From positions 32,001 to 96,000 of IMG/VR virus record IMGVR_UViG_3300046474_000239: 64,000 nt of DNA. One strand, written 5' to 3'. The stretch is from a virus. The translations under genes were made by a program, and so were the position numbers. Positions 644-64,000 of this stretch are shown in pieces. Numbering within the stretch: position 1 is the stretch's first letter; every line of letters starts with the position of its first letter. The notes below the pieces were generated by a model that saw only the letters and a list, made by a program, of their open reading frames with translations, was not told where the DNA came from and ran no database searches.

Positions 644-744
644 TTGTCGTCATTATGGTATGAAAGCCCCCATAATCTGCGAAAGCTTGCAAGAAATCGG
701 CTTTTGCACAGCGCGTGCAATCAATTGCACCAGGAGTCAGTGAG

Positions 745-1059
745 ATGAAACGTAAAGAAAACGGCGTCACCACTTTACAGGCCCGTAACGGTCAAAACGT
801 CGTCGCTTTCGACGCCATCGCCAAGCTCTCTGGAGTATCGGGCGGGGGCGTTGTCAAGGTCCTGGCAGCAATGCGCGCCATTGCAGATTATGAGGGCGAC
901 CAGGCACTAGCGAGCGGCCTGGGGGCGTTCGAGAATGTTCCGACAGGGTTAGCGGATGAATACCGCGCACGCGCTACAGCGGCCTACGCGCATGACCTGG
1001 CCGAAGCATTGGAAGGCCACGAGCTGGCGCCGATCTTGCGCCTGGACCGATTGGTGTAG
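745..1059 (+). CDS. hypothetical protein
   Basis: ATG at 745 after CAGGAG; the ORF-track start at 715 lies inside the palindrome. Confidence 0.65.
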   Translation: MKRKENGVTTLQARNGQNVVAFDAIAKLSGVSGGGVVKVLAAMRAIADYEGDQALASGLGAFENVPTGLADEYRARATAAYAHDLAEALEGHELAPILRLDRLV

Positions 1060-1060
1060 C

Positions 1061-1088
1061 TTGCGGGCGGTCGTAGGCCTGCTATTCT
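1061..1088 (+). promoter_or_regulatory. putative sigma70-like early promoter
   Basis: TTGCGG-N16-TATTCT followed by AATAC, the same pattern as at 6188 and 7605. Confidence 0.5.
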
Positions 1089-1127
1089 CTTAATACACAC
1101 CAAACGTCACCCATAAGGGGATGCACC

Positions 1128-1781
1128 ATGGTCACCAAAAAGTTTACCTGCAAGGTCAGTGAGGAGCACGGCTTCCTCGGTTGGGTCATGAATACCATGC
1201 CCCACTTCGACCCGGCCACCGGCATGGGTGTAGCCCATGATTGCCTGGAACACTTGACCCGTCGCGTAGGCTTTGAAGGCGAAATGGAGGCCTTCGGTGT
1301 CGCGCTGTTCATCCGCTACGGCGGCGGGTACTGGACAGAACGTGGCGCCTACGACTCCTCGTGGAGCGGCAACACTTGCACCGAAGTCGCGGAGTTCCTG
1401 GCCCGTGATACAGACATGACCGTGGCTAAGGCCCCGCGCACCCCTTTGCTGGAGGACGGTGAAGAGGAAGAGATCGCCAAGATGCAGACCAGGGCACTGG
1501 AGGACTTCTATTCTGAGTGGGCGGATAGCTACGGCCTAGAGGACACGCCCCGTGAAGTCGTAAGCCTGGCGCTCGAACGGGCGGCTGTCTGGATCCGTCG
1601 CGGATTCCGTAACGCAGAACGCAAGTACACCGCACCCGTGTACGACCTGGCGTACATGTTTGCGCAGATAGAGAAAGAAGTAGACGCGCTAAACCCGGAA
1701 GAGGGCGACACCCTCACTGTCAAATTCAGTCGCGATGAATGCGACTATTCTGTAACACACAAACGTCAATACGACTGGTAA
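1128..1781 (+). CDS. hypothetical early protein
   Basis: 217-aa ORF, TAAGGGGA RBS. Confidence 0.8.
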   Translation: MVTKKFTCKVSEEHGFLGWVMNTMPHFDPATGMGVAHDCLEHLTRRVGFEGEMEAFGVALFIRYGGGYWTERGAYDSSWSGNTCTEVAEFLARDTDMTVAKAPRTPLLEDGEEEEIAKMQTRALEDFYSEWADSYGLEDTPREVVSLALERAAVWIRRGFRNAERKYTAPVYDLAYMFAQIEKEVDALNPEEGDTLTVKFSRDECDYSVTHKRQYDW

Positions 1782-1793
1782 AGGAGTAACACC

Positions 1794-2132
1794 ATGCAAA
1801 AAGTTGGAATCTTGAGCCGTATGGGTCTCGGTGCTCTCTTGGGCTCCGCCCTGGCGCACAGCCTGATGCAAGGCGTGCAATCAATTGCATCGACAGGCCC
1901 GCGACAGCATCGCGTAGCACCTAACATCACCCGCCAGCGTTGGTACAGTGGTCGACATGACCATAAGTCAGGCAAGAAACCTGGCCAGACTGATGCACAA
2001 GCGTCACAAGCCCTGGCAACTGCGCAAGCTAAGCGGGCGCGCAAGGCCGCAGCCCTCACCCGTTGGGCGGAGCGTAGCGCCGAAGGTGCGCAAGCCTGGC
2101 GCCAGGCTTTGACGGGCGGAGCCACCTACTAA
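1794..2132 (+). CDS. hypothetical basic protein
   Basis: AAGGAG RBS; contains the palindrome in frame (VQSIA). Confidence 0.7.
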   Translation: MQKVGILSRMGLGALLGSALAHSLMQGVQSIASTGPRQHRVAPNITRQRWYSGRHDHKSGKKPGQTDAQASQALATAQAKRARKAAALTRWAERSAEGAQAWRQALTGGATY

Positions 2133-2149
2133 CCCCAAACCACCTACAG

Positions 2150-2167
2150 AGGCCCGAAAGGGCCTTT
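2150..2167 (+). terminator. intrinsic terminator-like hairpin
   Basis: AGGCCC-GAAA-GGGCCT-TT. Confidence 0.6.
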
Positions 2168-2250
2168 GTCAGTGTAACTAGCGCCGTTTAATGGGCGTGC
2201 TAATATTCAATTGTACCCCGGCAAACGTCATCCCCAAGGAGACAAGCACC

Positions 2251-2646: not shown

Positions 2647-2647
2647 C

Positions 2648-3391
2648 ATGGCAAAGTCAAAAGCGGATTACATTGAGCAAGGCCGGGCGGATGCAGCAGC
2701 CGGTGGCGCACGCAAGATTGGCTTTACCCGTAACTCGTGGCAGGAAAACGCCTATGACCTGGGCTTTAACGCGGAGTACAAACGTCAGGTATCTTGCCCA
2801 GCCTGTGCGGCCGGTGTGCCTCTCGCTGCTCCGGTGCTCGCCAAGGTTGTCGGTGGCCCGGACGACGGGAAGGTCGTACAGCTCACTGCAAAGGCTGTGC
2901 AAGCGATTACACGCACGGCGGGCGAAACGCTGGACGCTGGACGCCAGGCACACGCCGCACAGGTCACACGCATGGCGACGGAACATCGCCGGGCGGATCG
3001 TATCGACAGAATGACCCGTGGCTACATCGCAGCAGCACTGGGGAGCAGTGGCGGGACCACACCAGAAGGCGAGGAGCTGGAAAGTCTGGAGGGCTACGAG
3101 TTCAGTGATGAGTCGAAGTCGAAAGCCTGGGGCATTTGCGCGGCCTTCTATGACCGCTACACGACAGACGTTAATGCCTACGCTGGCACGTACAAGCCTG
3201 GCAATGGTGCGGATCCTTACGAGCACGCCGGTCACGACCTGTGGCTCACCTCCGGCGGTCACGGTGTAGGCTTCTGGGATCGCGGCCTGGGCAACCTCGG
3301 TGATCGACTGAGCAAGGCGTGCGGCTTCCGCACAGACTTCCCGGAGAAGTGGGTAGACATTGGTGATGATCACTACGTCCACCTGGACTGA
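2648..3391 (+). CDS. hypothetical protein (C-terminal GHDLWLT..GHG.GFWDR motif)
   Basis: ATG at 2648 directly after the upstream stop; motif recalled from uncharacterised phage proteins. Confidence 0.75.
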   Translation: MAKSKADYIEQGRADAAAGGARKIGFTRNSWQENAYDLGFNAEYKRQVSCPACAAGVPLAAPVLAKVVGGPDDGKVVQLTAKAVQAITRTAGETLDAGRQAHAAQVTRMATEHRRADRIDRMTRGYIAAALGSSGGTTPEGEELESLEGYEFSDESKSKAWGICAAFYDRYTTDVNAYAGTYKPGNGADPYEHAGHDLWLTSGGHGVGFWDRGLGNLGDRLSKACGFRTDFPEKWVDIGDDHYVHLD

Positions 3392-3443
3392 TGCAATCAA
3401 TTGCACGGCGCTCGAAACCGGGCGCCTTTGAGGAGTTAACGCC

Positions 3444-5001: not shown

Positions 5002-5071
5002 ACCTCGTGCAATCAATTGCACCGACTCACCCATTAATCGCCCTGGCTTAATCGCCGGGGCTTTCTCGTTT

Positions 5072-6000
5072 CGGGCGGAGCAGATACCAGGATCCTCTAT
5101 AGGGAACAATCCACTATCACCAGGTACACACGCCAGGATAAAACGGGCGGACACTCTACACACACCTATAGACAATCCCACTAGGGAACATAGAACACAC
5201 CAGGACCATAGCAAAGGTTTAGACGGGCGGATCCTGTAGAGTTTCGGGCGGACCAATATGCAATACCCTATAGACAATAACCATAGAGAGAATCATATAG
5301 AGATAAACAGTGTAGAGAACCGATCTAGTGTTTCATTCTCTATCAGTGTTTTCCCAGTGAACTATTTCCCGCAAAAATTCTCTGGTGATTCAAGTTCAAT
5401 TCATCGGTGTCTATCCGTGTCTAGTGCTGCTGGTGCTTGGGTTAGTGTCTACGTCACGCTAACTGGTGCTGCTGTACGCTGCTGTCATGCTAATGCAGGC
5501 CCGTTTGTGTTATCAGCAGTAGTGGTGGAGTTAATGTTCTCTCTATAGGGGATAAATGACATCGACCGCCCGTAAACCCTGGGTACATGTTTATTCTCTC
5601 TATAGGGAGCAAGTGACATCCCGCCCGTGTTTATTGGTTCTGTGTGGGCATGCCGCATTCATAACTGGTCACTGCTGGTGTTTCCTCTCTATAGGGCGTA
5701 ACTGGTATCCGCCCGTGCAATTGATTGCACTGGTGTGGGCATGTGACGCTTACTACTGTCGTCACTGCTGGTGTGGGCACCTGGTTTATACAACTGGTGA
5801 GTGGTGGTGGTCATGCGCGTTTCATGACTGCTGCTGGTGACGCAACTGGTGCTGGTGTCATAACTGGTGCAACTGGTGTCACTGCTGCTGGTGTCATGAG
5901 TGGTGGTGGAATTCTCTCTATAGGGCTGTGGTGGTATTCCGCCTGTGAAACCTGTGCCTGTGTGGGCATGTGCTATTTACTACTGAAGTCACTGCTGCTG
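5072..6000. repeat. non-coding locus with head-to-head arrays of a bipartite unit CGGGCGG-N13/16-CCTATAGA (candidate genome end/pac or origin)
   Basis: Left units start at 5072, 5144 and 5245. Reverse-complement units TCTCTATAGGG...CCGCC(C/T)GT at about 5540, 5597, 5686 and 5915. Imperfect dyad centred near 5320. Many ACTGGTG/CTGCTGGTG repeats. Confidence 0.8.
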
Positions 6001-6187
6001 TAGTTGTCCTGGCGCCGTGCAATTGATTGCACCGACCTGGATCCGTGTTACACCGCTCCGAAGCACGTCAAATGCGTGCCAGAATCGAGCTGAAGCACGG
6101 CAAATACGTGCCAGATACACCCCGGATCCGCGCCTATATAGAAGGGCTTCGAAACCGCACCGTTTGTCGGCTCCGACCAAATCAGGT

Positions 6188-6580: not shown

Positions 6581-6799
6581 ATGACCACAGTAAACACTCC
6601 CGAAGGCATATCGTATTTTCGTTTCGCCTCACTCAAAGGCCAACTCAAACTTGAGTCGGTAGGCCTGAAAAGTTCTAGCGGCGCACTCCGCCCACAACTT
6701 GCGAAAGAGTTCGGCCTTAAACCCCGCGCACCACACGCCGACTACATCGCCTATTGCATTGCGCGCATGAATGAATTGATCCCGCGCCAAGTTGTATAA
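6581..6799 (+). CDS. hypothetical protein
   Basis: Leader motif and RBS. Confidence 0.75.
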   Translation: MTTVNTPEGISYFRFASLKGQLKLESVGLKSSSGALRPQLAKEFGLKPRAPHADYIAYCIARMNELIPRQVV

Positions 6800-6856
6800 T
6801 GCAATTGATTGCACGGGGCGGAAACGCCCCACACCCAAACTAGTAGAGTGACCATC

Positions 6857-8751: not shown

Positions 8752-8818
8752 CCGCGTGCAATCAATTGCACCAACTAACGGGCGGGATATGCCGCCCTTC
8801 TTATATAGGGGCTACATC

Positions 8819-9050: not shown

Positions 9051-9233
9051 ATGACCTATGTATTCAGAAGGCTAGACGGGCGGTTAGATTACATATACCG
9101 CAAAGGCCTACCATTCAGAGAGCGCACAGCACCATCAGTAGTCCGTCGCCTTACACGCATCACCCGCCGTATGCCTATCCACTACAGAAGCATACGCGAA
9201 GCAAAGGCACGCATTGATCAGGCGTGCAATTGA
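9051..9233 (+). CDS. hypothetical basic protein
   Basis: TAAGGGG RBS; the stop codon lies inside the palindrome. Confidence 0.55.
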   Translation: MTYVFRRLDGRLDYIYRKGLPFRERTAPSVVRRLTRITRRMPIHYRSIREAKARIDQACN

Positions 9234-9631
9234 TTGCACGGACTCACACGCGAAACGGGCGGATAGAATACCCTATCCACCCATAGGCAATACCCATGCC
9301 AGTACACAGAAAAATCCACCATAGAAAGTTTGGTGAAACGACAATACCGTGCGCCGGACATTTTTTATGGGTACGAGTTTTGATTCCATGCTACCTAGAT
9401 TCTTCGTCTACATTGTTTATCGTGCATCCAGCAATCACTCAGGTCATGACAAGAACATGTCAGGTATTTGAGAGAGTCACGAGAGAGACAAATACAAACT
9501 CACACCTGGCGTGCAATTGATTGCATCAGCGATGTCAAATGTCGGTGGTTAAAAATCTTCGGGGTGACCAGGGTATAATGAGCGTGCAAGGGCATAACAA
9601 TGAATGCCCAAAAATCGAAGGGGTGATCGCT

Positions 9632-14670: not shown

Positions 14671-15271
14671 CAGCAAACCCTTGTACCTCAGTGACGTGCA
14701 ATCAATTGCATTGGACGTTTTGCAAGCCCAAGTCGGCGCCTGGTTGCTACAGATGTGGGGTCCGCTTTCGGCGGGCGATGTGCCTGAGCGTGTTCAGCGC
14801 TTCCAGGAAGAAGCCAATGAGCTGTGCCAGGCCATGGGCCTCACCCGCAAAGAGGCGCACATGCTGGTCGAATACACCTGGGACCGCCCGGTAGGTGAGC
14901 CGCACCAGGAAGTGGGCGGAGCGATGACCACCCTTGCCGCCCTTTGCTTCGCGTCAGGCCTGGACCTGCAAGCCGCCACGGCAGCAGAGTTCAACCGCTG
15001 CAACGGCCCGGCCGTGATGCAACGCATCCGCGAGAAGCAAGCACTCAAGCCGAAAAGCAGCCCGCTCCCAGGGCCTACCGAGATCGACTGGGCGGCAGAG
15101 CGAGAGCTGTTCCACCAGCGCCACCCGATGCCTGAAGGCGTAATCCTATACAACAGCCCCAGCCTGCGTAATGCCGCGTACGGCTACGAGCACGTACGCT
15201 GTATTTCCGCAGCGATCAGCCACGACAAGCTGTGGTTCGGGTGGCGGTCCTGCGTGGAAGCTCACCAGTAA
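14660..15271 (+). CDS. MazG-like all-alpha NTP pyrophosphohydrolase domain protein
   Basis: RFQEEANELCQA...QEVGGAMTTLAALC resembles the EExxE...E motif; contains the palindrome (VQSIA). Confidence 0.6.
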   Translation: MNNDSKPLYLSDVQSIALDVLQAQVGAWLLQMWGPLSAGDVPERVQRFQEEANELCQAMGLTRKEAHMLVEYTWDRPVGEPHQEVGGAMTTLAALCFASGLDLQAATAAEFNRCNGPAVMQRIREKQALKPKSSPLPGPTEIDWAAERELFHQRHPMPEGVILYNSPSLRNAAYGYEHVRCISAAISHDKLWFGWRSCVEAHQ

Positions 15272-17107: not shown

Positions 17108-17263
17108 AGGTACTGGTTGAGCTTATAGACCTTTCGTTGCGGGTGGCTGGGATGCTGGCGCTGTGCGCCCTGGCCATACCCGAGAAGAACCAGACGGCAC
17201 AGACAGTTCACGCACTGGCCGTCACCCTCCTGACCTGATGCAATCAATTGCACGGAGCGAAAC

Positions 17264-20267: not shown

Positions 20268-20299
20268 CCGTGCAATTGATTGCACGAGCATCGGTGGTT

Positions 20300-22679: not shown

Positions 22680-22997
22680 ATGCAAGCGATTAAGCGAGCG
22701 TTGCAGCGTCTCAGGCTGGCCCTGGCGCCGGTCAAGCCTGTGAACAAGGTGGGCAAGCTGGGCCTGTGGGAGCGGGGCGAGGTGATGGACTACGGGGACT
22801 GCTTCGTAGCCCACATCACGGTCAATGGCACCCCAGGGGCGGTTATGGTGCGAGCCCCCACCAAGGCCTCAGCCGCAGCCCGCCGCGACCTGATAGTCCA
22901 GACGATGATGCAGGAATCCCGCGAAGAGGCGGCGGTGCAATTGATTGCACGAACCTCCGGCGACGAGACCGTAAACCTGGTGAAGTCAAGTCAGTGA
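22680..22997 (+). CDS. hypothetical protein
   Basis: Contains the palindrome in frame (VQLIA). Confidence 0.65.
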   Translation: MQAIKRALQRLRLALAPVKPVNKVGKLGLWERGEVMDYGDCFVAHITVNGTPGAVMVRAPTKASAAARRDLIVQTMMQESREEAAVQLIARTSGDETVNLVKSSQ

Positions 22998-28804: not shown

Positions 28805-28825
28805 CCGTGCAATTGATTGCACCAG

Positions 28826-34660: not shown

Positions 34661-35296
34661 ATGTACATTCTCAATAACACCGAACTTACAAAGGGCACCT
34701 CGGCTGGTTCTAGTAACGCCTGCGGCGCGGGTACACCGGAACAGTTCGAGGACCTCCAGCGCACCATCCGTACCCGTGTGGAAGAAGCTCTCGGCATTGA
34801 AACCCTTGACCGGGTGGATTGCCGGGACACTTTCCAGATAACGGGCTGTGGCGCACAGGAATGCTTGCTGCGCACTACAAACGCATTCCTTACCATCGAC
34901 ACACCTGTGTTTCTCGACAGCGCGGGGGAAGTTCTGGAAATCACCCCTTCGCTAGTGGATCGGAAGTATGGCGTGATCACCGTAACGCTTGACCCTGGCA
35001 CGTACACCGTCACGTACACCAGCGGGTTCCTCGCGGAGCCGGGATCGAACGTCTACAAGTTTTTGCCGGACTGGGTGAAATCAATTGCACTGGCCACCGT
35101 GATCATGTGGCGGCGGTCGACCAACCTGGCGGCCACTGACAAGAACTCCTCGCACCAGGACTTGAACGCCTCGATTGTCCGGGAGCTGAATGCCCGGATC
35201 TTCAACCGCTACGACAGGCCTCGCTTCATGCACGAGTTCCCTGTGAAGTCGGAGCACCGGGCGGCTGGCACTACCGGAGACTGGAACGAATGGTAG
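34661..35296 (+). CDS. head-tail adaptor-like protein
   Basis: Position; VTYTSGF...LPDWVK.IA pattern typical of adaptors. Confidence 0.7.
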   Translation: MYILNNTELTKGTSAGSSNACGAGTPEQFEDLQRTIRTRVEEALGIETLDRVDCRDTFQITGCGAQECLLRTTNAFLTIDTPVFLDSAGEVLEITPSLVDRKYGVITVTLDPGTYTVTYTSGFLAEPGSNVYKFLPDWVKSIALATVIMWRRSTNLAATDKNSSHQDLNASIVRELNARIFNRYDRPRFMHEFPVKSEHRAAGTTGDWNEW

Positions 35297-37164: not shown

Positions 37165-37521
37165 ATGCAATCAATTGCACCGACGATCAAACTCGAACTC
37201 CTGGCCGACGACATCAGTATCAAAGGCGTCAGGAAGAACCCAGGCGATGTAGTAGAGGTCTCGCGAAGCGCAGCCAAGTCTTTGTTGGCCGCAAAGAAGG
37301 CGGTCATCTGGACCACCGAGCGGGCAGCCAAAAGCGCAGCAACGGCACCAGAAGCGGGAGGTGAGGCAGAGGCCGAGCCAGACCACGAGCACCAAGAACC
37401 TCTGGACGAGGCGGGCGGTGCCGATTACAGTGCCGAAGTACCCGCAGTTCAAGAACCTGTCGAGGCGGAGAGTGTGGCTCCGGCAGGACGAGCAGCCAAA
37501 CGCATCCAACGGACCAAATAG
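37165..37521 (+). CDS. hypothetical protein whose start codon lies inside a palindrome copy
   Basis: GGAGG RBS, then ATGCAATCAATTGCAC (MQSIAP). Confidence 0.7.
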   Translation: MQSIAPTIKLELLADDISIKGVRKNPGDVVEVSRSAAKSLLAAKKAVIWTTERAAKSAATAPEAGGEAEAEPDHEHQEPLDEAGGADYSAEVPAVQEPVEAESVAPAGRAAKRIQRTK

Positions 37522-43619: not shown

Positions 43620-46139
43620 ATGACCATCAAGCTTTGGCCGTTCCGCCCAGACTGGGAAGGCGGCGTTCTGGAGAGACTGGAATGGCTGACGGATGTCATG
43701 GCAAGCACAAAGGGGGCGGAGCAACGCCGCCCCCAGCGGCTCACGCCACGCAAGACCTTGGAGGTGACCTTCCTGCCGCACGGTCGCGGGCGGTCTGTCT
43801 TCGACCTCTACGTCATGCAGAAGGGCAATGACGATTGGTACATCCCACTCTGGTATGACGTGGGTGTCCTTCGACAGCCTGTCGCGATAGACGCCGGGGT
43901 GGTCATGACCGACGTAACCTTCCGCGAGTTCACGTTAAACGGCCTGGCGGTCATCCGCACGGCGCCGTCTGCCGACGACGAAAGCACGACGTTCACTTAC
44001 GAGATCGTGAAGGTCCTGGGGCGCAGCTCAGGCAGTCTTCTGGTACAGCGTGCCCAGGAAGGTACGACAGCGCGAGTCTGGGGAAAGGGGTCTGAGATCT
44101 ACCCGCTCCGCAAGGCAAGATTCACGGACCAACCGAAGGCCGACATCGTGGCCGCGTCGGTACACTCCACGCAGATGTCTTTTACGATCACCGAGCCGAA
44201 CGAGTGGCAAGGCGTAAGCCAAACCGCAGGGTACGGGGCGGCGTATAGCCAGAGCTGGGCGATGAGCGCTGACGTGTCACCCCTTACGCCGATGGCCAAC
44301 CTGGGGCGTGTACGGGCGCCAGAAAACCTACCTCTGTTTGAGGGGTTCCGCGTACTCACCATCAAGCCGGACTACGCACAAGACATGTCCATCGCCTACG
44401 ACCGGGTGCTGAACGAGCTGGATAACGGCAACGGCATTCCAAGGTCCTCGGATACCCTGGGCTTCGCCGTGCCTACCCAGCGACACACCTGGTTCATCCA
44501 AGGCCGAGAAGACGCCGCCAACCTCCGCACGCTGTTGTACTGGCTGCGCGGCAAGGTGCGTCCGTTGTGGGTGCCTACGTTCAACGACGACGTGCAATTG
44601 ATTGCACCGGCCGCCTCGGGTGCGATGTATGTGGACATTCAGGACATTGGCTTCGTCGAGCTGGGCGGAGGCATTGGTCGTCAGGTACTGGCGATCAACC
44701 TCAACGACAACTCCTGGATCTTCCGCAGGGTAGTAAGCGCGGTGGTCGGGGCTGGCTTCGAGCGACTTGAATTGTCGGAGGCCCTGCCGCAGGCGCTGAA
44801 CCTGGAGGACATTTATAAGATCAGCTTCATGGCGGTAAACCGACTGGCGCAGGACACCGTAGAGATCAACCACGTCACGGACCTCGAAGGTCTGACCAAG
44901 GTAGTGACCACGTTCCGAGCTTCGCCCGACTTGCGCCAGTATCTGCCGTGGACCGCCAAGATCCCGTCCGCGCCTGCATCCTGCCCTAAGACGTGCGAAG
45001 GCATGACGCGGGTGGACGACTTCATGAACTTCGGTCTCCCCAACTTCTCGTGGTCCGCAGAAGCCTGCCTGACGACGGCCAAGGGTGCGTACATGCGCTA
45101 CAAGCTGGCGTACTCGCAGACCTTCGTCTCCTGGTACGACACGGAGATCACGGACAACGCCCTCTACCTGGCGGCGGACTTGGCGAACCGGGACTACTGG
45201 ACGGCGCATGCCGGGTGGGTCTACGACCAAACAGCGGACAGTGCCTTTTACGAAGCGCAGAAAGTGTTGTACTGGTCCCATACCAGAGTGGAGGGGCAGC
45301 AGTGGATCTCCGATAACTTGCCGCTTGGCGTTGCCGTGTACGCGGCCAGTCTCAGCGATGCTGCCTTCCAGGAGTACTACGTGAAGCAGCGGGCGCAGAA
45401 GGACTTCGAGGTCTACACCCACGACACCGAGTTGCTCATGGCCTGCCACCCTCGCCGCTGGCTGCCTATGGCCAAGATGGAGACAGTGCCCGCCACCTGC
45501 GAAGGCGGCATGCTGGGGACCTTCTGTATGCAGTCCATGTGGTCGGTAGAGGAAGGGAGGACCTACCCCAACCAAACGCGAGGGGCGGCCACGCTGTATA
45601 CAGCCGGGGTGGTCGAGAGACTCCAGGGAGTAGACCCAGGCACCTGGCCTACATCGTTAGCCTCGCAGCAAGGTATCTATTACCGCATGGTGGGCGCACC
45701 GCTCAGCACTAACGGGGTGTACCGCAACTGCGGGTGCATACCTCTACAGTTCGAGGAGAACCACCAGCGCCTGTCTGCCCCTACAAGTGGTATTGAGGAC
45801 CCGACCTGGGTGCAGTGGTTTCACTACTCCCAGATAGCGCTGCTTACTCCAGACGCTTGGCCGACCGAGATCCGGGTGCTAGTGTACGACTCTCTTTCCA
45901 GTGTTCTTTTGCGCACCATGGACATCACCATCGAGAACTTCGAGGTGACCGCCAAGGCGGACGAGTACCACGCCCTGTCTGGGGATGATGATTACACCGC
46001 AAACCTCGTCGTCTTCCGGGAGATGTACAACCGAGAAGCGGATGGACAGACCACCTTCCACCCAGACCCGTGGGATGGTGCCTGGAACCTGGTTCCGGTG
46101 GCGGTCGACGGGATCAAAGTAGAAATTTACGCACGATAG
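43620..46139 (+). CDS. distal tail / baseplate protein with a long C-terminal extension
   Basis: PDW..GV.E.LEWLTDV....G.EQR N-terminus; follows the tape measure gene. Confidence 0.75.
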   Translation: MTIKLWPFRPDWEGGVLERLEWLTDVMASTKGAEQRRPQRLTPRKTLEVTFLPHGRGRSVFDLYVMQKGNDDWYIPLWYDVGVLRQPVAIDAGVVMTDVTFREFTLNGLAVIRTAPSADDESTTFTYEIVKVLGRSSGSLLVQRAQEGTTARVWGKGSEIYPLRKARFTDQPKADIVAASVHSTQMSFTITEPNEWQGVSQTAGYGAAYSQSWAMSADVSPLTPMANLGRVRAPENLPLFEGFRVLTIKPDYAQDMSIAYDRVLNELDNGNGIPRSSDTLGFAVPTQRHTWFIQGREDAANLRTLLYWLRGKVRPLWVPTFNDDVQLIAPAASGAMYVDIQDIGFVELGGGIGRQVLAINLNDNSWIFRRVVSAVVGAGFERLELSEALPQALNLEDIYKISFMAVNRLAQDTVEINHVTDLEGLTKVVTTFRASPDLRQYLPWTAKIPSAPASCPKTCEGMTRVDDFMNFGLPNFSWSAEACLTTAKGAYMRYKLAYSQTFVSWYDTEITDNALYLAADLANRDYWTAHAGWVYDQTADSAFYEAQKVLYWSHTRVEGQQWISDNLPLGVAVYAASLSDAAFQEYYVKQRAQKDFEVYTHDTELLMACHPRRWLPMAKMETVPATCEGGMLGTFCMQSMWSVEEGRTYPNQTRGAATLYTAGVVERLQGVDPGTWPTSLASQQGIYYRMVGAPLSTNGVYRNCGCIPLQFEENHQRLSAPTSGIEDPTWVQWFHYSQIALLTPDAWPTEIRVLVYDSLSSVLLRTMDITIENFEVTAKADEYHALSGDDDYTANLVVFREMYNREADGQTTFHPDPWDGAWNLVPVAVDGIKVEIYAR

Positions 46140-47447: not shown

Positions 47448-49803
47448 TAAAAGTACAACCATAGGCTTCCGATACTACTTCACCATGGTGATGGGTCTGG
47501 GCCGTGGCCCGATTAATGAGCTGGTAGAGATCCGCGTAGGTGGCAAGCTTGCGTGGTACGGCAGCGCGGCAACGTCCGGCAACTACGGAATCGACGCAGG
47601 TAACCTGTTCAACGGCGACAAGGGCGAGGGCGGCATTGAGGGCTCGTTCGACCTCTGCATGGGGGAGAAGACCCAGGGGCAGAACGCTCGCGTCGTGGGC
47701 ATGCGCGGGTCTCTGGTATCCGCCATGCGCGGCGTGTGCGTCATGGTGTACGACGGACTCATCTGCTCGATGAACCCTTACCCCAAAGAGTGGAAGATGC
47801 GCGTACGCCGGACCACAGCCGGGTGGGACCAAGACCCTTGGTATCCAGAGCGGGCGGCCATTTACTTCCTGGACAACGTGACCGCCCTGGATGCGCCCAC
47901 GGTCGACGTTGGGTTCATCGGTGACCCTGCTGACTACACACCGGCCGAGTGGCAGTTGCTCTATTACGCCAAACTCGCAGAGCTGCAAGCTGACGCCCAG
48001 TTGGGCCGCCGCCTGGTTTGCTCGATGAACCCCGCGCACATGCTTATGGAGATCGCCACAAACCGGGAGTGGGGTCGTGGCATGCCGATGGATCAGATAG
48101 ACCTGAACCTGTACAAGGTCGCGGCGGACAATCTGTACTGCGAGGGCTTCGGCATGTGCCTGCGCTGGAACCGGCAGAGCAGCCTGGACGACCTGGTCGC
48201 AGAGATCATCAGCACCATCGGTGGCATGCAGTACGTTAGCCGCACCACTGGGCTCCTCACGCTGCGCCTGCTCCGCAACGACTACGTCATAGAAGACCTG
48301 CCCGTGTTTGCCCGCGACGGCCGAGGCATCCTGAGTATCGAATCCGAAGAGTCGTCTGGGTCTGAAGCCGGGTTCAACGAAGTAGTGGTCAAGTACCGCT
48401 CCGCGCTGAACGGGGACGTGGCGTCTGTCCGCTACCAGAACCTGGGCAGCATCATGTCGGACGGCGGGGTGAACTCCACCACCACCGAGTACCTAGGCAT
48501 CGCAGACCGTAACATCGCTGTCCGGGTGGCTGCGCGAGACGTGAAGTCCAACACGGGGGATCTGCGGAGACTGAAGCTGACCCTAGACCGTCGTGGCTAC
48601 CCGCTGGAGCCAGGTGTGCCGTTCATCATCTCGGACCCAGAGAGCGGTATCGAGTCGATGATCATGCGGTCCGTTACCATCACCAACGAGGACTTCGTCA
48701 GCGGCACCATCACGCTGTCCTGCCTGACTGATGTATTCGGCCTGCCGGACACCGCGTACGTGGGCGAGGAAGCTGCGCCGCCTGACTTACCGAGTGCAGC
48801 CCCTGCGCTGCCCGTGGACCAGCGGCTGCTCGAAGTACCGTACCGCTCTCTCTACCAGAACACCGACAAGGCCAACTTCGACCTGCTCACCGATGACGTG
48901 GCGTTCCTCGGGGCGGCGGCTGTGCGTCCTAACTTCAACAACCCGAACTATGACCTGATCTACAAGTCGCACTCAGCGACTGAGTACCTGCCAGAAGATG
49001 ACGTACCAGGAGAATGGTGCGCGTCGGTCTTGTTGCCTCGCACCCTGTCACCGCTGGACGACCTGATCACCTTCACCACAGTAGACCTGAGTGCGGTGAC
49101 CGTAGGGCTGATGGCGCTGATCGACGACGAAGAGGTCCAGGTGACAGCGATGGACACGGTAGCCAAGACCCTGACGATTGCCAGGGGTTGTCTAGACACC
49201 GTACCGACCGAGCACGCACGCCTGACCCGCGTGTGGTTCTACGAGACTGGCGAGACGTTCTCAACCAAAGAGTTCACGCTGGGCGAGCAGGTGGACGGCA
49301 AGGTCCTGTCCAACGCCGCAGCAGGGGTACTCAATCCAACCCTGGCCCAGGAGATGACATTGACCATGGTTGGGCGGTTCGGCAGGCCGTACCCTCCAGG
49401 CAAAGTGCAGATAGAAGGGGAGGACATTTTCCTCGTGCAATCAATTGCATCGGGAGACACACTGACTTGGGCGCGGAGGAACAGGATCACCCAGGCTGAC
49501 GTAGTGCAGGACTTCCACGTAGCCGACATCACGCCCGAGGCAGGCCAGACCACTACCGTCCGCACCTACCGCCAGGACACCAACGCGCTCTTGGAGGAGT
49601 ACACCGGGATCACAGGCACAAGCCAGGTGCTGACTCCAGGCTACGTCGGGGTCATTCGCGTGGAGGTCTCCTCCGTGCGGGGCGGCCTGGAGAGCCACCA
49701 GAAGTATGCAGTAGTGCTTGGCAGCGACACCCCTTACATGACTACCGTGACCGGCGAGTTCATGACCACCGTATCCGGCTACTACCTGACTGAAGGAGCA
49801 TAA
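47437..49803 (+). CDS. central tail tip / host-specificity protein
   Basis: MGGSK...GFRY, MNPYPK, MNPAH, RG..DTVP..H, RPYPPG. Confidence 0.85.
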   Translation: MGGSKSTTIGFRYYFTMVMGLGRGPINELVEIRVGGKLAWYGSAATSGNYGIDAGNLFNGDKGEGGIEGSFDLCMGEKTQGQNARVVGMRGSLVSAMRGVCVMVYDGLICSMNPYPKEWKMRVRRTTAGWDQDPWYPERAAIYFLDNVTALDAPTVDVGFIGDPADYTPAEWQLLYYAKLAELQADAQLGRRLVCSMNPAHMLMEIATNREWGRGMPMDQIDLNLYKVAADNLYCEGFGMCLRWNRQSSLDDLVAEIISTIGGMQYVSRTTGLLTLRLLRNDYVIEDLPVFARDGRGILSIESEESSGSEAGFNEVVVKYRSALNGDVASVRYQNLGSIMSDGGVNSTTTEYLGIADRNIAVRVAARDVKSNTGDLRRLKLTLDRRGYPLEPGVPFIISDPESGIESMIMRSVTITNEDFVSGTITLSCLTDVFGLPDTAYVGEEAAPPDLPSAAPALPVDQRLLEVPYRSLYQNTDKANFDLLTDDVAFLGAAAVRPNFNNPNYDLIYKSHSATEYLPEDDVPGEWCASVLLPRTLSPLDDLITFTTVDLSAVTVGLMALIDDEEVQVTAMDTVAKTLTIARGCLDTVPTEHARLTRVWFYETGETFSTKEFTLGEQVDGKVLSNAAAGVLNPTLAQEMTLTMVGRFGRPYPPGKVQIEGEDIFLVQSIASGDTLTWARRNRITQADVVQDFHVADITPEAGQTTTVRTYRQDTNALLEEYTGITGTSQVLTPGYVGVIRVEVSSVRGGLESHQKYAVVLGSDTPYMTTVTGEFMTTVSGYYLTEGA

Positions 49804-53809: not shown

Positions 53810-53868
53810 CAGCCTCAATTAGCGGAATGCAATTGATTGCACGAAGACAACTTGAGGGGGATACCGTG

Positions 53869-55290: not shown

Positions 55291-55312
55291 GAGCCCGCAT
55301 AACGCGGGCTTT
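55291..55312 (+). terminator. hairpin / weak terminator fused to a palindrome copy
   Basis: AGCCCGC-ATAAC-GCGGGCT-TT then GCAATTGATTGCAC. Confidence 0.55.
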
Positions 55313-55338
55313 GCAATTGATTGCACTAGGAGAATGAG

Positions 55339-57419: not shown

Positions 57420-57505
57420 AGGGATGTCGTCGTGCAATTGATTGCACCGACCTGGTCTTTAAAGACTGAGCCTTTCCGGCTCCAACCAAGCTCAAGGAAA
57501 ACAAC

Positions 57506-59834: not shown

Positions 59835-59835
59835 C

Positions 59836-60819: not shown

Positions 60820-60852
60820 ATCAAAGTGCAATCAATTGCACGGGAGGAAGAT

Positions 60853-61540: not shown

Positions 61541-61544
61541 GGCC

Positions 61545-61940: not shown

Positions 61941-61956
61941 CACTTTCCCACCTTAT

Positions 61957-61977
61957 GCCCTCCTCGGAGGGCTTTTT
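61957..61977 (+). terminator. intrinsic terminator
   Basis: GCCCTC-CTCG-GAGGGC-TTTTT. Confidence 0.85.
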
Positions 61978-61991
61978 ATTAACTGGAGTAC

Positions 61992-62032
61992 ATCTTACCA
62001 AAATTGACCCACCCCGGTCAAAAAGGTAAGAT
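61992..62032. promoter_or_regulatory. symmetric promoter/operator element
   Basis: ATCTTACC-AAAA-TTGACC-CACCCC-GGTCAA-AAA-GGTAAGAT; reads TTGACC-N17-TAAGAT on + and TTGACC-N18-TAAGAT on -. Confidence 0.75.
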
Positions 62033-62061
62033 AGACTCACCAACGAGAGGAGGTACAAGCA

Positions 62062-62409
62062 ATGCAGACGTTCAGCGAAGTAGAAGCGGGCAAGGCCCTC
62101 ACCAGGCTCGCCCAGCGCAAGCTGCGAGACACCACCATCAAGCCGACAGCGGTATGCCTGTTCGCCTGGCTGGCAGCCGAAGCGGCCCGCGAAAACATCA
62201 ACCCGGTGCAAACCACCATCAGTGACATGTTCTTCGGATTCACCGCTCGCGGCGACGGCGAGGAAGTAGAGATCTGCCGGGTGGGTATGTCGATCAACAC
62301 AATCAAGGCCTGCCTGGAGAACCTGGAAGATACGGGCTTCATTGCCACCGACCGTATCGCCAGCACTCGTGGACAGAAGATCAATGTAGAGATCGTCATC
62401 GGGGCGTAA
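62062..62409 (+). CDS. putative winged-helix DNA-binding protein
   Basis: RVGMSINTIKACLENLEDTGFI HTH signature; GAGGAGG RBS. Confidence 0.75.
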   Translation: MQTFSEVEAGKALTRLAQRKLRDTTIKPTAVCLFAWLAAEAARENINPVQTTISDMFFGFTARGDGEEVEICRVGMSINTIKACLENLEDTGFIATDRIASTRGQKINVEIVIGA

Positions 62410-62412
62410 GCC

Positions 62413-62943
62413 ATGAAAATAGTGCAACAGCCTTTGGTCCCACGGGAGGAGTTTGCGGAGGCCTACCGAAAGCTGAAGCTATGGTGGGGTATGCGCCATA
62501 TCGAGGAAGAGGCGTACATCCTGGGAGTGCACCTGCTAGCCAAGATGGTTCGCCAGGACAGCAAGGAAATATCGGCCACCTGGGCAGAGTTCCAGAACGA
62601 GGTAGTCGTTCGCGGTGATGAGGTGGTAGCTGGACCACTGCATGGGGTGGAGTTCCTCTTTCTCGGGGCGGTGCAGCAACTACACACCACCGTGGGGATA
62701 TTCAGCCACATCAGCCAGGAAGGCATGGAGCGAAGCCTGTTAGAAGCCAGAGAGCACAACTTCATCAGCCAGCACTTCACCAAGTCGCCGGGCCAGGAAG
62801 AAGACCTGCTAGGGCCACACACCCCTATGCTGTTCGTCTTGGTGCCTTGGGCGGGGTACGACCCAGACAAGACCTGGAGCACCTACGCAGACGGGGGGCA
62901 TGTACGCAAACTGCCCGCGTGGATCAACAAAACAAAAGGGTGA
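62413..62943 (+). CDS. hypothetical protein
   Basis: Tight packing. Confidence 0.65.
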   Translation: MKIVQQPLVPREEFAEAYRKLKLWWGMRHIEEEAYILGVHLLAKMVRQDSKEISATWAEFQNEVVVRGDEVVAGPLHGVEFLFLGAVQQLHTTVGIFSHISQEGMERSLLEAREHNFISQHFTKSPGQEEDLLGPHTPMLFVLVPWAGYDPDKTWSTYADGGHVRKLPAWINKTKG

Positions 62944-62947
62944 TTCC

Positions 62948-64000
62948 ATGCAACACACTCACGCGCACGTCGCGTTGAGCGCACTACGGCAAAGCCTGAC
63001 CCAGAAGGACGACCTCTACTTTGTTGCATGGGTAAAAGTGAACTCCGTTTTAGGGAAGTTTTGGCCAGAGCGGTTCAGCGCAAGTGAGTATCTTGTTCTA
63101 CTTTTCATAGTGAGCAGGACACTGATGTTCAGGAAGAAGGCGGAAGTAATAACCAAAAAACACTTCGCAGAGGGTGTAACGTCCAGCAGAAGTGTCACCT
63201 GTTCTGGGTGTGGGGTAGGAGAAACAGCGCTGAAGAAGGCCTTAAAGAGGTTGTGCGATGAAGATTTCCTTCACGTTCACAGCTTTAAGGAGGGTAATAC
63301 AGAGACCGTACCAAGGATTTACGAGCTGAATTTCGTCAAAATCCTAGACGGATACGACACGGACGAGGTGCACAACATGCTCAAACGAGGAAAATCCGCC
63401 GTACAAAACGACGCCAAAGAGGACGAAGATGACCCGTTTTTAGGGGGGTTACATGTAAGGGGGGAGGGGGGTCGCAATCGTGGGTACATAACAGAGGTAT
63501 TACATACCTCTAATAAAGCATTAATAACTAATAAGTCCGCCGAGGCGGAGACGGGAGGAGAAGCAGTACTACGGGTGGGTAAACGTAGACGTACAGATGC
63601 AACTGATTGCACGGACAAACCCAAGCCTATCTCTGGTAATGCCAGGGAGCGGTTGGCACAGATGCAGGCTATGGCCGCAGGTAACCGGGCGAAGCGTCTT
63701 CACTCTGTTCGTGGGCTACCCGAGCGTCGATGGGACATCAAGGACCTACAAGCGCTACTCGACGAAGCACGTACTCAGTGTGGCCTATCAGTACCGCGTG
63801 TGATGGCTACCGCGAAAGGCGCGGGCGTTCTGTTCAAGCGGATGAAAGCCGCAGAGATCAACGACTCCCTGGAGTTCTTCACCTGGGCCTTCACGCACTG
63901 GTCCACCGTGGCGAACGCCAACCGCCGCAGCAAGGCACGGCAGCTCAAGGATACGAAGACGGTGAACAGCGAGATGTCGCTTATCCCCAACTTCGCAGAA
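62948..64000 (+). CDS. lambda O-like replication initiator, 3'-truncated (not in the ORF track)
   Basis: ATG at 62948 with the frame open to the window end; SEYLVLLFIVSRTL.F.K..E.I...HF.EG...G.GE..LKKALKRL resembles the O-protein N-terminal wHTH; AT-rich internal tract. Confidence 0.7.
   Translation, partial: MQHTHAHVALSALRQSLTQKDDLYFVAWVKVNSVLGKFWPERFSASEYLVLLFIVSRTLMFRKKAEVITKKHFAEGVTSSRSVTCSGCGVGETALKKALKRLCDEDFLHVHSFKEGNTETVPRIYELNFVKILDGYDTDEVHNMLKRGKSAVQNDAKEDEDDPFLGGLHVRGEGGRNRGYITEVLHTSNKALITNKSAEAETGGEAVLRVGKRRRTDATDCTDKPKPISGNARERLAQMQAMAAGNRAKRLHSVRGLPERRWDIKDLQALLDEARTQCGLSVPRVMATAKGAGVLFKRMKAAEINDSLEFFTWAFTHWSTVANANRRSKARQLKDTKTVNSEMSLIPNFAE

Follow-up and report, generated by a model that had tools for sequence, protein, structure and literature searches.

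A dispersed 16-bp palindrome in a siphophage genome and its relatives as a candidate protein-binding site

Why should a GC-rich phage genome carry the same short AT-rich palindrome dozens of times? The window, that is, the whole stretch of 64,000 nucleotides analysed here, corresponds to positions 32001-96000 of a genome of 104,448 bp (G000). A preliminary description of it had reported some 25 copies of a 16-bp inverted repeat with a CA/TG centre, and had proposed a DNA-marking system bound by a dimeric phage protein.

Copies of the site in the genome

An exact search found 13 perfect 16-mers in the window, against 0 expected (100 shuffles), and 26 matches were obtained when up to 2 mismatches were allowed, against 0.25 expected. 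The CA/TG centre was present in 25 of these 26 matches, which had the same coordinates as those reported previously (715 to 63597; Table 1), and the additional match, at 2897 (GTGCAAGCGATTACAC), is probably a chance occurrence. Our recount of 12 CA-form and 13 TG-form sites agreed with the orientation split given earlier. Scanning the full genome, as the preliminary description had advised, gave 34 sites, with 31 occurrences of the 14-bp core TGCAAT(CA/TG)ATTGCA. The site has a G+C content of 37% as compared with 58.8% for the genome.

Coding sequences (CDSs) occupy 87% of the genome positions, yet 23 of 33 sites were not wholly within a CDS. Nine window copies, the number previously estimated, were found in CDSs (1875, 14696, 22935, 31803, 35075, 37165, which includes a start codon, 44592, 49435 and 63597), and they were read in differing frames as V/M-Q-S/L-I-A, AINC or ATDC.

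Table 1. Copies of the site in the window (window coordinates)
Position	Strand	Form	Context
715..730	.	CA, perfect	Intergenic; start at 745 lies 14 nt on
1875..1890	.	CA, T as last base	Within CDS 1794-2132; VQSIA
3391..3406	.	CA, A first	First base is final base of TGA stop of CDS 2648-3391
5007..5022	.	CA, perfect	Stop 5 nt before; terminator-like hairpin 5040-5061 after
5715..5730	.	TG, perfect	Gene-poor repeat region; adjoins TCTCTATAGGG unit
6017..6032	.	TG, perfect	Low-GC intergenic
6799..6814	.	TG, A first	Overlaps TAA stop of small ORF 6581-6799; TATAAT precedes
8756..8771	.	CA, perfect	Directly past stop of ORF 8536-8751; then terminator-like hairpin 8780-8797
9224..9239	.	TG, perfect	Overlaps 3' end of small ORF 9051-9233
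9511..9526	.	TG, T last	Overlaps 3' end of small ORF 9296-9520
14696..14711	.	CA, T last	Within CDS 14660-15271
17238..17253	.	CA, A first	First base shared with TGA stop; start 17264 lies 10 nt on
20270..20285	.	TG, perfect	Stop 2 nt before
22935..22950	.	TG, perfect	Within CDS 22680-22997; site at equal relative position in G002 orthologue
28807..28822	.	TG, perfect	Stop 2 nt before, terminator-like hairpin after; SM1, G006 and G007 each with its own version here
31803..31818	.	CA, perfect	Within CDS 31502-32902, AINC; orthologous sites in G002, SM1 (AIAC) and G007
35075..35090	.	CA, GTGAAAT left arm	Within CDS 34661-35296; G002 site at equivalent place
37165..37180	.	CA	Contains ATG start codon of gene following major tail protein; same arrangement in SM1 (3839, MQTLA) and G002 (6921)
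44592..44607	.	TG, perfect	Within CDS 43620-46139, VQLIA; in G002 at aligned column; SM1 and G006 sites at similar relative gene position
49435..49450	.	CA, T last	Within CDS 47437-49803
53827..53842	.	TG, A first	Intergenic; start 53869 lies 26 nt on; equivalent sites in G002 and SM1
55311..55326	.	TG, T first	Hairpin on one side, SD of endolysin gene 55339 on the other; sites in G002 and SM1
57432..57447	.	TG, perfect	Upstream of AAA+ ATPase gene; 12 nt downstream of sigma-70-like -10 box (TTGATT, 16-nt spacer, TATTAT); at the orthologous place G002, SM1, G006 and G008 each have their own version
60826..60841	.	CA, perfect	Stop 6 nt before; DUF1257 gene start 11 nt after
63597..63612	.	Degenerate ATGCAACTGATTGCAC	Within O-like replication initiator gene (62900 to beyond window end), ATDC; immediately right of the AT-rich repeat region of this gene

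Lineage versions, conserved positions and spacing

What had been described as a feature of one phage was found to be clade-wide in phages of Alpha- and Gammaproteobacteria. Siphophage relatives of about 70-110 kb carried 9-66 copies each, in lineage-specific versions that all fit TG[C/A]AA-N4-TT[G/T]CA, and a control with the reversed pattern gave 0-1 matches per genome. Cultured carriers include Pseudomonas phage SM1 (30 copies of TGCAA(A/G)CG(C/T)TTGCA), the Rhizobium phages L338C (52 copies) and RHph_I4 (50), and Aeromonas phage HJ05 (23). There were 26 copies of TGCAATCGATTGCA in G006, 28 of TGCAAC-NN-GTTGCA in G008, 16 of TGAAATCGATTTCA in the 48-kb fragment G009, 66 copies in G007, 20 in G003 and 22 in G004; two relatives, G011 and G012, had no such motif. 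One identical 14-mer was shared by phages with portals only about 30% identical and G+C contents of 45-62%. The portals of the analysed phage and SM1 are 64% identical, yet their motif versions differ.

Orthologous positions retained the site, and its sequence followed the lineage version even where a codon changed. In a scaffold-like gene it lay at a relative position of 0.22-0.24 in the analysed phage, G002, SM1 and G007, and upstream of the AAA+ gene local versions were present in the analysed phage, G002, SM1, G006 and G008. Orthologous codons read AINC in the analysed phage and G002 and AIAC in SM1 (N to A), matching the motif of each phage, and in G007 the equivalent site was shifted by a few codons into a different frame. 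Because orthologous codons follow the motif of each phage, the DNA rather than the peptide is selected, as had been claimed earlier.

The sites were also evenly spaced. The gaps had a coefficient of variation of 0.55-0.71, whereas a null respecting intergenic and coding placement gave about 0.95; spacing was significantly even (P 0.0000-0.03) in 8 of the 11 genomes tested, the exceptions being G008, G004 and G010.

These sites could have been collected by the phages for a host protein, whether a nucleoid protein or a regulator of the LacI/GalR or CytR type. The generic operator of the LacI/GalR family is TGNAANCGNTTNCA; we take the family consensus TGNAA-N4-TTNCA, with its central CG, to resemble it, and TGCAAC-NN-GTTGCA is presumably similar to a CytR site. 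Both kinds of site span 14-16 bp as palindromes of even length, have TG..AA arms and carry a pyrimidine-purine step at the centre. A six-frame search detected no LacI-type HTH in the phage, which would leave its supply to the host. Nevertheless, the exact 14-mer spans the G+C range given above, phages with the wider motif family infect Pseudomonas, Rhizobium and Aeromonas, and relatives as close as the analysed phage and SM1 differ in motif. Dozens of copies per 100 kb also contrast with the one or two per operon of LacI/GalR operators. When 185,579 bacterial species genomes were scanned for the motif, the only hits were singletons and coding coincidences, often from EF-Tu codons (VQLIAPIAM), and a small number of phage-like contigs; no host regulon was found. 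A host reader is thus very improbable.

The centre, the half-sites and the nature of the reader

The directional CA/TG core had been likened to a nicking or recombination overlap. In the relatives, however, the centre was CG or nearly any dinucleotide; G008, G004 and the Rhizobium phages showed no constraint on it. The hexamer ATCGAT was almost missing from the phages with a CA/TG centre (observed/expected: 0/24 in the analysed phage, 0/27 in G002, 3/27 in G007 and 1/12 in G001) and present in those with a CG centre (G006, 35/33, or 14/22 with motif copies masked; G010, 93/74; G003, 45/45; G009, 16/20 with motif copies masked). Sixteen palindromic hexamers were purged from the analysed genome. 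CG, within ATCGAT, is likely the ancestral centre, and the seemingly invariant core looks, from these comparisons, like a by-product: ATCGAT, a restriction-type palindrome, would have been purged in this lineage by single transitions on either strand, leaving CA/TG as a remnant of the ancestral CG (TGCAATCGATTGCA) and not as a functional polarity signal. The core is poor evidence of nicking or of an overlap, because the centres of relatives vary and CA/TG tracks the genome-wide purge.

The two halves of the site also varied independently. In G007, 29 of the 66 sites were hybrids of a TGCAAT half and a TGAAAT half, and in G004 both copies of position 6 were non-complementary. The predicted RNA folding energy was 0.0 kcal/mol for hybrid sites and only -5.2 for the perfect site; the common variant with A first gave -3.1. 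Since independent variation of the half-sites breaks hairpin pairing, a dimer reading double-stranded DNA is indicated, rather than an RNA hairpin or a cruciform. The CA form was in excess on the sense strand in G001 (25:1), G007 (43:18) and G008 (14:4), which a purely symmetric reader of double-stranded DNA would not predict and which hints at strand-specific mutation bias or function.

That excess, in some genomes, would suit an RNA element: once transcribed, the palindrome would fold into a small hairpin that governs how stable the mRNA is, how it is processed or how the following gene is translated. Transcription reads every site in the sense direction, and many lie right after a stop codon, 10-14 nt ahead of the next start. 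This stop-motif-SD layout is nevertheless expected anyway from insertion into minimal spacers. The hairpins are weak, and the arms are mismatched and non-folding in many sites of G004, G006 and G009 as well as in the G007 hybrids. Moreover, the arm sequence is conserved and not pairing alone, and positions 6/9 are complementary in most lineage versions (not in SM1 and G004) though a 2-nt loop is impossible. This reading is the least probable of those considered.

The same strand excess in several genomes could also reflect strand-specific action on a nuclease or recombination target, the palindromes being cut, nicked or extruded for recombination-dependent replication or concatemer resolution by the conserved module of UvsX, Cas4-like exonuclease, helicase and two resolvases. 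No other non-structural block of the clade is as conserved as this module, and distributed initiation would fit the regular spacing. On the other hand, hybrid half-sites cannot extrude as cruciforms, the variable centre of G008, G004 and the Rhizobium phages is unlike a defined cleavage overlap, and G011 and G012, which lack the motif, have the module all the same. Such a target is improbable.

We therefore consider that the element is quite probably a protein-binding site on duplex DNA. As previously proposed, a symmetric dimer encoded by the phage fits best as its reader, in agreement with the lineage co-evolution, the independent half-sites and the lack of a host regulon among the genomes scanned. 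Each subunit of this putative sequence-specific protein would read one half-site, (G)TG[C/A]AA[N]. The six-frame search detected no ParB-type HTH, and the families common to all motif-bearing genomes (helicases, UvsX, resolvase, a ParB_N protein, polymerase, primase and others) were also present in G011 and G012. ParB-like, winged-helix and HTH proteins are only candidates. The binders named in the preliminary description (the wHTH protein at 62062, the H1-like protein at 7686 and the small proteins at 281, 10104 and 10657) were limited to a Samunavirus-like subclade or to the analysed phage and G002; they cannot be the universal binder, because the motif ranges much wider than they do. DNA marking found no specific support, as the ParB-methyltransferase/CmoA trio occurred in only 5 of 10 motif-bearing genomes.

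Transcription, chromosome coverage and known systems

A special case of protein binding, with a defined output, would be global transcription control, in which a phage regulator blocks or modulates host RNA polymerase, as an operator at some promoters and as a roadblock between co-directional gene blocks, comparable to Cluster A mycobacteriophage stoperators and dispersed P1 C1 operators. Since all of the approximately 141 genes are on one strand, any temporal control has to operate along a single long direction of transcription. Intergenic sites make up two thirds of the total, some sites lie 6-21 nt past a good sigma-70-like promoter (57432) or overlap TATAAT (6799), several flank terminator-like hairpins, and the densest cluster is in the low-GC, early-looking region. 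Although several sites adjoin promoters or terminators, the sites kept no set distance from promoters, terminators or start codons: in the few instances where a promoter could be recognised, site centres were at about -59, -67, -68 or +13, with no constant offset from the -10/-35 boxes, and terminator-bearing intergenic regions were not associated with sites (odds ratios 0.9-3.3, all not significant). The repeated early-promoter units at 29.0-34.2 kb of the genome lack the motif, site orientation was independent of transcription in the analysed phage (19:14) and G002 (13:11), and promoter control requires neither the regular spacing nor the third to half of sites that lie in long genes. The authors of the Cluster O study voiced the same doubt on their palindrome (PMC4351075). 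Transcription control is rather unlikely, although the several sites beside promoters or terminators leave some chance of a transcriptional role.

Chromosome-wide coverage, as opposed to promoter control, is a role of the bound sites to which we give a probability slightly short of even. Akin to dispersed KorB or Noc sites and unlike a classical promoter operator, the sites would give the protein points of docking or nucleation all along the DNA, so that no part of the chromosome lies beyond its reach. They recur fairly regularly, every 1.5-5 kb or so according to the phage, in places that the genome can spare: for the most part the few free bases that separate a stop codon from the following ribosome-binding site, and failing that the genes themselves. 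Taken whole, the best explanation, to which we give an even chance, is of dimer-bound sites on double-stranded DNA, set at regular intervals and co-evolved with their binder within each lineage, as a system that a large clade of siphophages (about 70-110 kb) would have inherited from its ancestor.

ParB-family proteins act at dispersed sites such as the KorB OB sites of plasmid RK2, Noc-binding sites and parS (related structures 8qa8, 7ol9 and 6sdk). The likeness lies in palindromes of 13-16 bp, many copies per replicon and, putatively for the phage sites, reading by a dimer and action at a distance; ParB_N proteins are encoded by the phage, and the half-site NTT[G/T]CAC presumably resembles the parS half GTTTCAC and P1 boxA ATTTCAC. 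However, the half-sites are everted relative to parS, the phage has no detectable ParB-type HTH, and its ParB_N proteins also occur in motif-less relatives.

In Cluster A mycobacteriophages (L5, Bxb1), stoperators are reportedly 13-14-mers without symmetry, to which an immunity repressor binds as a monomer. They are aligned with transcription and come from temperate phages. In common with our sites, they number 20-35 short copies genome-wide for one phage protein, mostly in short intergenic gaps, with lineage-specific variants co-evolving with the binder; in contrast, the sites studied here are dyad-symmetric, have no orientation rule in the analysed phage or G002, and occur in phages described as lytic.

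The closest described analogue is an unexplained palindrome of 17 bp, TGTTCGGNNNCCGAACA, from Cluster O mycobacteriophages (Corndog and relatives). It is present in more than 30 copies with 7-bp arms and a 3-bp A/T spacer in one tight cluster of five genomes (PMC4351075). In both cases more than 30 inverted repeats with invariant arms are scattered over the phage genome, part intergenic and part in genes, with positions largely kept among relatives, no copy of the repeat in the host and nothing convincing that ties the sites to promoters or to the direction of transcription. The sequence and lineage are unrelated, since Cluster O comprises actinobacteriophages with a prolate head, and many diverged versions in phages of Alpha- and Gammaproteobacteria contrast with a single tight cluster. 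Even spacing and a restriction-site-driven change of centre, found here, are unreported for Cluster O.

In the analysed phage and G002, the 2-3 bases past the right arm were purine-rich, on the sense strand only.

Occurrence of the palindrome in the phage and its relatives

The exact 16-mer GTGCAATCAATTGCAC was found 13 times on the two strands of the window, where none is expected, and 26 matches against 0.25 expected were obtained when up to two mismatches were allowed. Twenty-five of these 26 had CA or TG as the centre dinucleotide, and the 12 CA-form and 13 TG-form copies of the preliminary description were recovered at the same coordinates by the exact and mismatch searches; the match at window position 2897 is probably due to chance. 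The window corresponds to positions 32001-96000 of one phage record of 104,448 bp, and this complete genome (58.8% G+C) carried 34 sites in total, with the inner 14-bp core present 31 times. A crude gene call gave approximately 141 genes, every one of them on the plus strand, and although coding sequence occupied 87% of the positions, 23 of 33 sites were not fully contained within a CDS. Many sites started at a stop codon or 2-6 nt after it, the first base of the site (G or A) often doubling as the final base of the stop codon, and seven were localised 10-14 nt upstream of the next start, which places the ribosome-binding site directly after them. No match was obtained by megablast of window positions 1-20000 against the phage collection.

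According to the portal protein, the nearest named relatives (64% identity) were Pseudomonas aeruginosa phages of the genus Samunavirus (SM1, PaMx31, PA_L9 and the BHU phages), and phages of Rhizobium, Aeromonas and Rhodobacter were more distant. The cultured Pseudomonas phage SM1 had the same arms as our phage around a different centre. When IMG/VR was scanned for the exact 16-mer, the matches comprised close relatives as well as contigs of 45-62% G+C without nucleotide similarity, each with several copies, whose similarity to our phage was limited to portal, protease, capsid, polymerase and similar proteins (25-47% identity).

Sites and gap evenness in our phage and in related phages (G001 to G009 are sequence records of relatives; sites of G001, G002 and G005 were counted with the 14-mer of our phage only, those of SM1 with the version listed, and those of the other relatives with the pattern TG[C/A]AA-N4-TT[G/T]CA; CV, coefficient of variation of inter-site gaps)
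Phage	Size	Sites	Version of the motif	Gap CV	P
Our phage	104,448 bp	34	GTGCAAT(CA/TG)ATTGCAC	0.64	0.005
SM1		30	TGCAA(A/G)CG(C/T)TTGCA	0.55	0.0004
G001	101 kb	22	14-mer identical to our phage	0.71	0.03
G002	95 kb	22	14-mer identical to our phage	0.65	0.011
G003	99 kb	20	centres mixed	0.61	0.013
G004	103.5 kb	22	position 6 and centre mixed		
G005	70 kb	12	14-mer identical to our phage	0.58	0.004
G006	100.5 kb	26	TGCAATCGATTGCA	0.64	0.011
G007	103 kb	66	TGCAAT and TGAAAT halves mixed	0.66	<0.0002
G008	105 kb	28	TGCAAC-NN-GTTGCA		
G009	48-kb fragment	16	TGAAATCGATTTCA		
Rhizobium RHph_I4	108 kb	50	TGCAAC-NN-GTTGCA		
Rhizobium L338C	110 kb	52	TGCAAC-NN-GTTGCA		
Aeromonas HJ05	79 kb	23			
Rhodobacter RcZahn	102 kb	9			

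A control with the reversed pattern gave 0-1 matches per genome. Lineage-specific versions were likewise observed in loci round the capsid gene of 71 related contigs, and two relatives, G011 and G012, had no copies of the motif. The motif is a property of a clade and not of a single phage. In the literature searched its sequences turned up only in primers and unrelated contexts, and the titles and abstracts listed for Samunavirus, L338C, RHph_I4, RcZahn and PaMx31 describe no repeats.

Probable recognition of half-sites on DNA and spacing of the sites

The site most widely conserved in position was the one localised 5' of the AAA+/DUF1257 operon, where our phage, G002, SM1, G006 and G008 each had its own version upstream of the AAA+ ATPase gene. 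The operon itself, encoding a Ycf46-like AAA+ ATPase, DUF1257, DUF2997 and a partner, occurred in most members of the clade, the motif-less ones included. In the scaffold-like gene a site was found at relative position 0.22-0.24 in our phage, G002, SM1 and G007, and the start codon of the gene following the major tail protein was part of a site in our phage, SM1 and G002; at further orthologous places the position was also kept with the sequence in the local version. The preliminary description had proposed that coding copies are read in different frames and that selection acts on the DNA rather than on the peptide, and both claims held. Nine copies in the window were within CDSs, in three reading frames, and the aligned codons AINC (our phage and G002) and AIAC (SM1) tracked the version of the motif, indicating that the protein follows the DNA; the site in the scaffold-like gene of G007 was a few codons off and in a different frame.

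A TGCAAT half and a TGAAAT half were combined in 29 of the 66 sites of G007, the two position-6 copies of G004 were often non-complementary, and hybrids were also present in G006 and G009. The degeneracy was symmetric, with C/A on the left and G/T on the right. Symmetric degeneracy together with independent half-sites fits a dimer reading two half-sites on duplex DNA, and is not expected of an RNA hairpin or of a cruciform. An RNA hairpin element such as a terminator, a REP-like element or a processing site was rejected because pairing was not kept and the stem was weak: as RNA the perfect 16-mer gave -5.2 kcal/mol, and the hybrid sites did not fold (0.0 kcal/mol). No T-run was found after the sites.

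Among 185,579 prokaryotic species, each represented by one genome, the motif was found as single copies only, many of them in EF-Tu codons; a few phage-like contigs were also among these matches. The exact 16-mer occurs in the EF-Tu gene of several Alphaproteobacteria (loci L210, L215, L226, L233 and others) as the codons for VQLIAPIAM; this agreement in coding sequence is a coincidence, and it raises database match numbers for the motif. The lack of a host motif in these genomes, which is indirect evidence with regard to the actual host, the distant hosts across the family and the versions differing in near relatives point to a phage-encoded reader. The element is genuine and strongly non-random, and its function lies at the level of DNA.

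Gaps between sites were compared with a null in which the observed numbers of intergenic and intragenic sites were kept and positions were drawn from real intergenic places and coding positions. Eight genomes had gaps more even than chance, the simulated CV being approximately 0.95, and evenness was not significant in G008, G004 and G010; many gaps in G001 and G003 were 5-6 kb. With respect to recognisable promoters the sites had no fixed register (site centres were at about -59, -67 and -68, and one site started approximately 12 nt after a -10 box), and the counts of sigma-70 promoters and terminators in window positions 1-20000 equalled those of shuffles. Terminator-like hairpins were not significantly enriched in site-bearing intergenic regions. 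No core gene had an upstream site in more than half of the genomes, the best pairings, with the 489-aa protein and the AAA+ gene, being found in only five of ten. We infer that this pattern reflects coverage of the chromosome and not regulation of individual promoters. Most likely, the sites are targets of a phage-encoded dimeric DNA-binding protein and would be placed for even coverage of the chromosome.

Centre dinucleotide and ATCGAT content

The centre was CG in SM1, G006, G009 and G010, and CA or TG in our phage, G001, G002, G005 and G007; G003 had a mixture of centres, and in G008, G004 and the Rhizobium phages almost any dinucleotide occurred. When positions 6 and 9 are T and A, a CG centre creates the hexamer ATCGAT. 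Observed against expected copies of this hexamer were 0/24 in our phage, 0/27 in G002, 3/27 in G007 and 1/12 in G001, all with CA/TG centres, and 35/33 in G006, 93/74 in G010 and 45/45 in G003, grouped as phages with CG centres. The trend survived masking of the motif and held in shorter loci, with the exceptions of locus L145 and G005. Sixteen palindromic hexamers were purged from our phage (at most one copy of each where at least 8 were expected, the expectations being 8-61), among them CCGCGG, CAGCTG, GCCGGC, CCCGGG, GACGTC, CTGCAG and ATCGAT. In the relatives 9-22 hexamers were purged, and the differing sets imply heavy and varied restriction pressure.

The simplest reading of these sequences is that an ancestral perfect palindrome may have come under restriction pressure on ATCGAT and that its CG would have been lost by a single transition on either strand. 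Such a loss would account for three features: a centre that is without exception CA or TG, similar numbers of the two forms in our phage, and the pyrimidine-purine step kept in both. It does not explain the excess of CA-forms on the sense strand of G001 (25:1), G007 (43:18) and G008 (14:4), our phage being near parity, nor the purine-rich bases found directly 3' of the right arm in our phage and G002. In G001 (IMGVR_UViG_3300033516_000084) a AAATATATTTTCAAAAA element was seen after several sites, and this phage has a 5845-aa gene.

The preliminary description had also taken the directional core as reminiscent of a nicking or recombination signal, a suggestion we consider unlikely, because the centre varies in the clade and CA/TG tracks the loss of ATCGAT. 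The directional core is probably a scar that restriction avoidance left in evolution and not a nicking or crossover signal. All genes being on one strand, the two orientations numbered 19:14 in our phage and 13:11 in G002. A flip of orientation near 37.3 kb in our phage (10 CA to 2 TG on the left and 8 to 14 on the right, genome-wide) was set aside, since its breakpoint was post hoc and the pattern was absent in SM1.

Candidate readers, described systems and other repeats

Positions of proteins and repeat regions in the window and in the complete genome
Feature	Window	Genome	Remarks
MerR/Xis-like HTH protein		2272-2559	downstream of helicase
489-aa protein		6319	
ParB-like protein (locus L201)		7854-8627	257 aa, ParB_N, GHTR box
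Second ParB_N protein		8637-10193	
Small protein	281		
CCTGGCG-hairpin units	about -2965 to 2250, 7517-7685	29035-34250, 39517-39685	
Low-GC repeat stretch	5070-5960	37070-37960	motif copies at window 5715 and 6017
H1-like protein	7686-8186		
AAA+/DUF1257/DUF2997 operon	57392-61977		
wHTH protein	62062		
O-like initiator	62900-64000 and beyond	94900-96297	465 aa

The binders put forward in the preliminary description fared poorly, because HMM searches confined the H1-like protein, the wHTH protein and the small protein at 281 to a close subclade. The H1-like protein, with a Lys/Ala-rich, AKKAA-rich N-terminal tail and a winged helix, resembles a linker histone in architecture. Its winged helix was modelled confidently (pLDDT 77-93) and weakly resembles MarR and DtxR regulators, and its gene sits in the densest site cluster in our phage, G002, SM1 and G007; the family was undetectable by HMM search outside five close genomes. 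The MerR/Xis-like HTH protein was syntenic in many members, including the motif-less ones. The O-like initiator, with a weak Phage_rep_O-like N-terminal domain, is unlikely as the reader, since it has AT-rich repeats of its own (TTACATGTAA, GTACATAAC and TTACATACC, in the middle of the gene, an arrangement like that of lambda with its origin inside the O gene) and just one degenerate copy of the motif. PDB sequence searches with three candidates returned weak MerR-type and ParB_N matches only. Phyletic profiling by BLAST gave no family present in all the motif-bearing genomes and absent from G011 and G012. The reader may be small and quick to evolve, or it may be one of the core proteins and have changed its specificity in some lineages.

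ParB-parS, KorB-OB and Noc-NBS have in common with our phage a palindromic site of about 13-16 bp and a replicon-encoded ParB-family protein with an N-terminal CTPase-type domain, and KorB, Noc and parS also have dispersed copies, from which they act at a distance. The half-site presumably resembles the parS half-site and the P1 boxA. The ParB-like protein gave a low-confidence model (pLDDT 60) with helices and a C-terminal beta-beta-alpha-alpha module; the N-terminal part of the protein matched ParB, Noc and KorB as the top Foldseek results (E 1.6e-5 to 1e-3). However, the defining HTH of ParB-type systems was not found in a six-frame HMM search of the phage (PF17762, E ≤ 10), and the presence of the protein does not track the sites: ParB_N was in all near-complete motif-bearing genomes, yet also in the motif-less G011 and G012. 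The C-terminal part had no Pfam match; its conserved segment, RRAP..R[IF]V.GE...F....YR.W..G.R, for which the low-confidence model shows two strands and two helices, is possibly a ribbon-helix-helix-like DNA reader. We consider it improbable that a putative ParB-like nucleotide-dependent clamp loads at the evenly spaced sites and coats the whole phage chromosome. Such a clamp would read DNA through a non-canonical module, possibly the C-terminal beta-beta-alpha-alpha domain, and would reach a few kilobases beyond each site; with even spacing, the entire chromosome would become coated. Its purpose might be organising or shielding replicating DNA or, in the Samunavirus-like subclade, moving a fused ParB-methyltransferase along the genome. 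Only five of ten motif-bearing genomes had the ParB-methyltransferase and CmoA-like genes. If true, lytic phages would encode a ParB/KorB/Noc-like system that acts over the whole genome.

We take the site consensus to resemble LacI/CytR operators. It differs from a LacI/GalR-type operator in that the six-frame HMM search of the phage found no LacI-type HTH (PF00356, E ≤ 10) and no host regulon was seen. Stoperators of Cluster A mycobacteriophages are asymmetric, oriented and bound by the immunity repressor of temperate phages. Genome-wide spread and co-evolution with the binder are common to them and to the sites described here, whereas the arms here are perfect inverted repeats with symmetric degeneracy, the orientation is not tied to transcription in our phage and G002 (it is biased in G001, G007 and G008), and the relatives of our phage are described as lytic. 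Among described systems, the 17-bp palindrome of Cluster O mycobacteriophages comes closest: it is present in 34 copies in Corndog, some of them in genes, at conserved positions, is missing from the host and shows no link to promoters. The authors of that study suspected that a dimer binds it and doubted a transcriptional role (PMC4351075). Considered as a descriptive kind and not as a homologous family, the Cluster O type corresponds to our phage in the tens of invariant-armed copies (34 against 0 expected), in their localisation between and inside genes at positions common to relatives, and in not being a host chromosomal motif in the species genomes scanned.

This kind of phage genome feature is already known, although unexplained, and the version described here is new and much broader; the Cluster O repeats may belong to a strategy that is more general among phages. 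P. aeruginosa phages that are being isolated and applied in therapy (SM1, UF_RH6, PA_L9 and the BHU phages) belong to the clade, together with rhizobial and Aeromonas phages, and approximately 90% of the clade's genes have no known function. A cis-element at 20-66 copies, at regular intervals and down to approximately 30% protein identity, marks an important and unstudied process, which could be chromosome organisation, global gene control or replication. Cultured Pseudomonas and Rhizobium phages make the feature open to direct study, and since these carry distinct versions, the binder and its specificity code are accessible by pull-downs and swaps. The feature would also be a clean case from nature of how avoidance of restriction sites can reshape a functional palindrome.

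Other repeats were observed in the same genome. At least seven similar intergenic regions had the layout CCTGGCG-hairpin-CTGCTATTCT, approximately 20 nt, TCACCCAnAAGGGGAT and then a start codon. They have the appearance of related early promoters that share a leader and a ribosome-binding site, and the palindrome was not found in them. In a gene-poor, low-GC stretch with an AT-rich core, the right side had TTCTCTCTATAGGG units with ...CCGCCCGT after them, and the left side had CCCTATAGA units in reverse orientation. This stretch, in which two copies of the motif are embedded, may serve as an origin, as a packaging site or as a group of phage-specific promoters.
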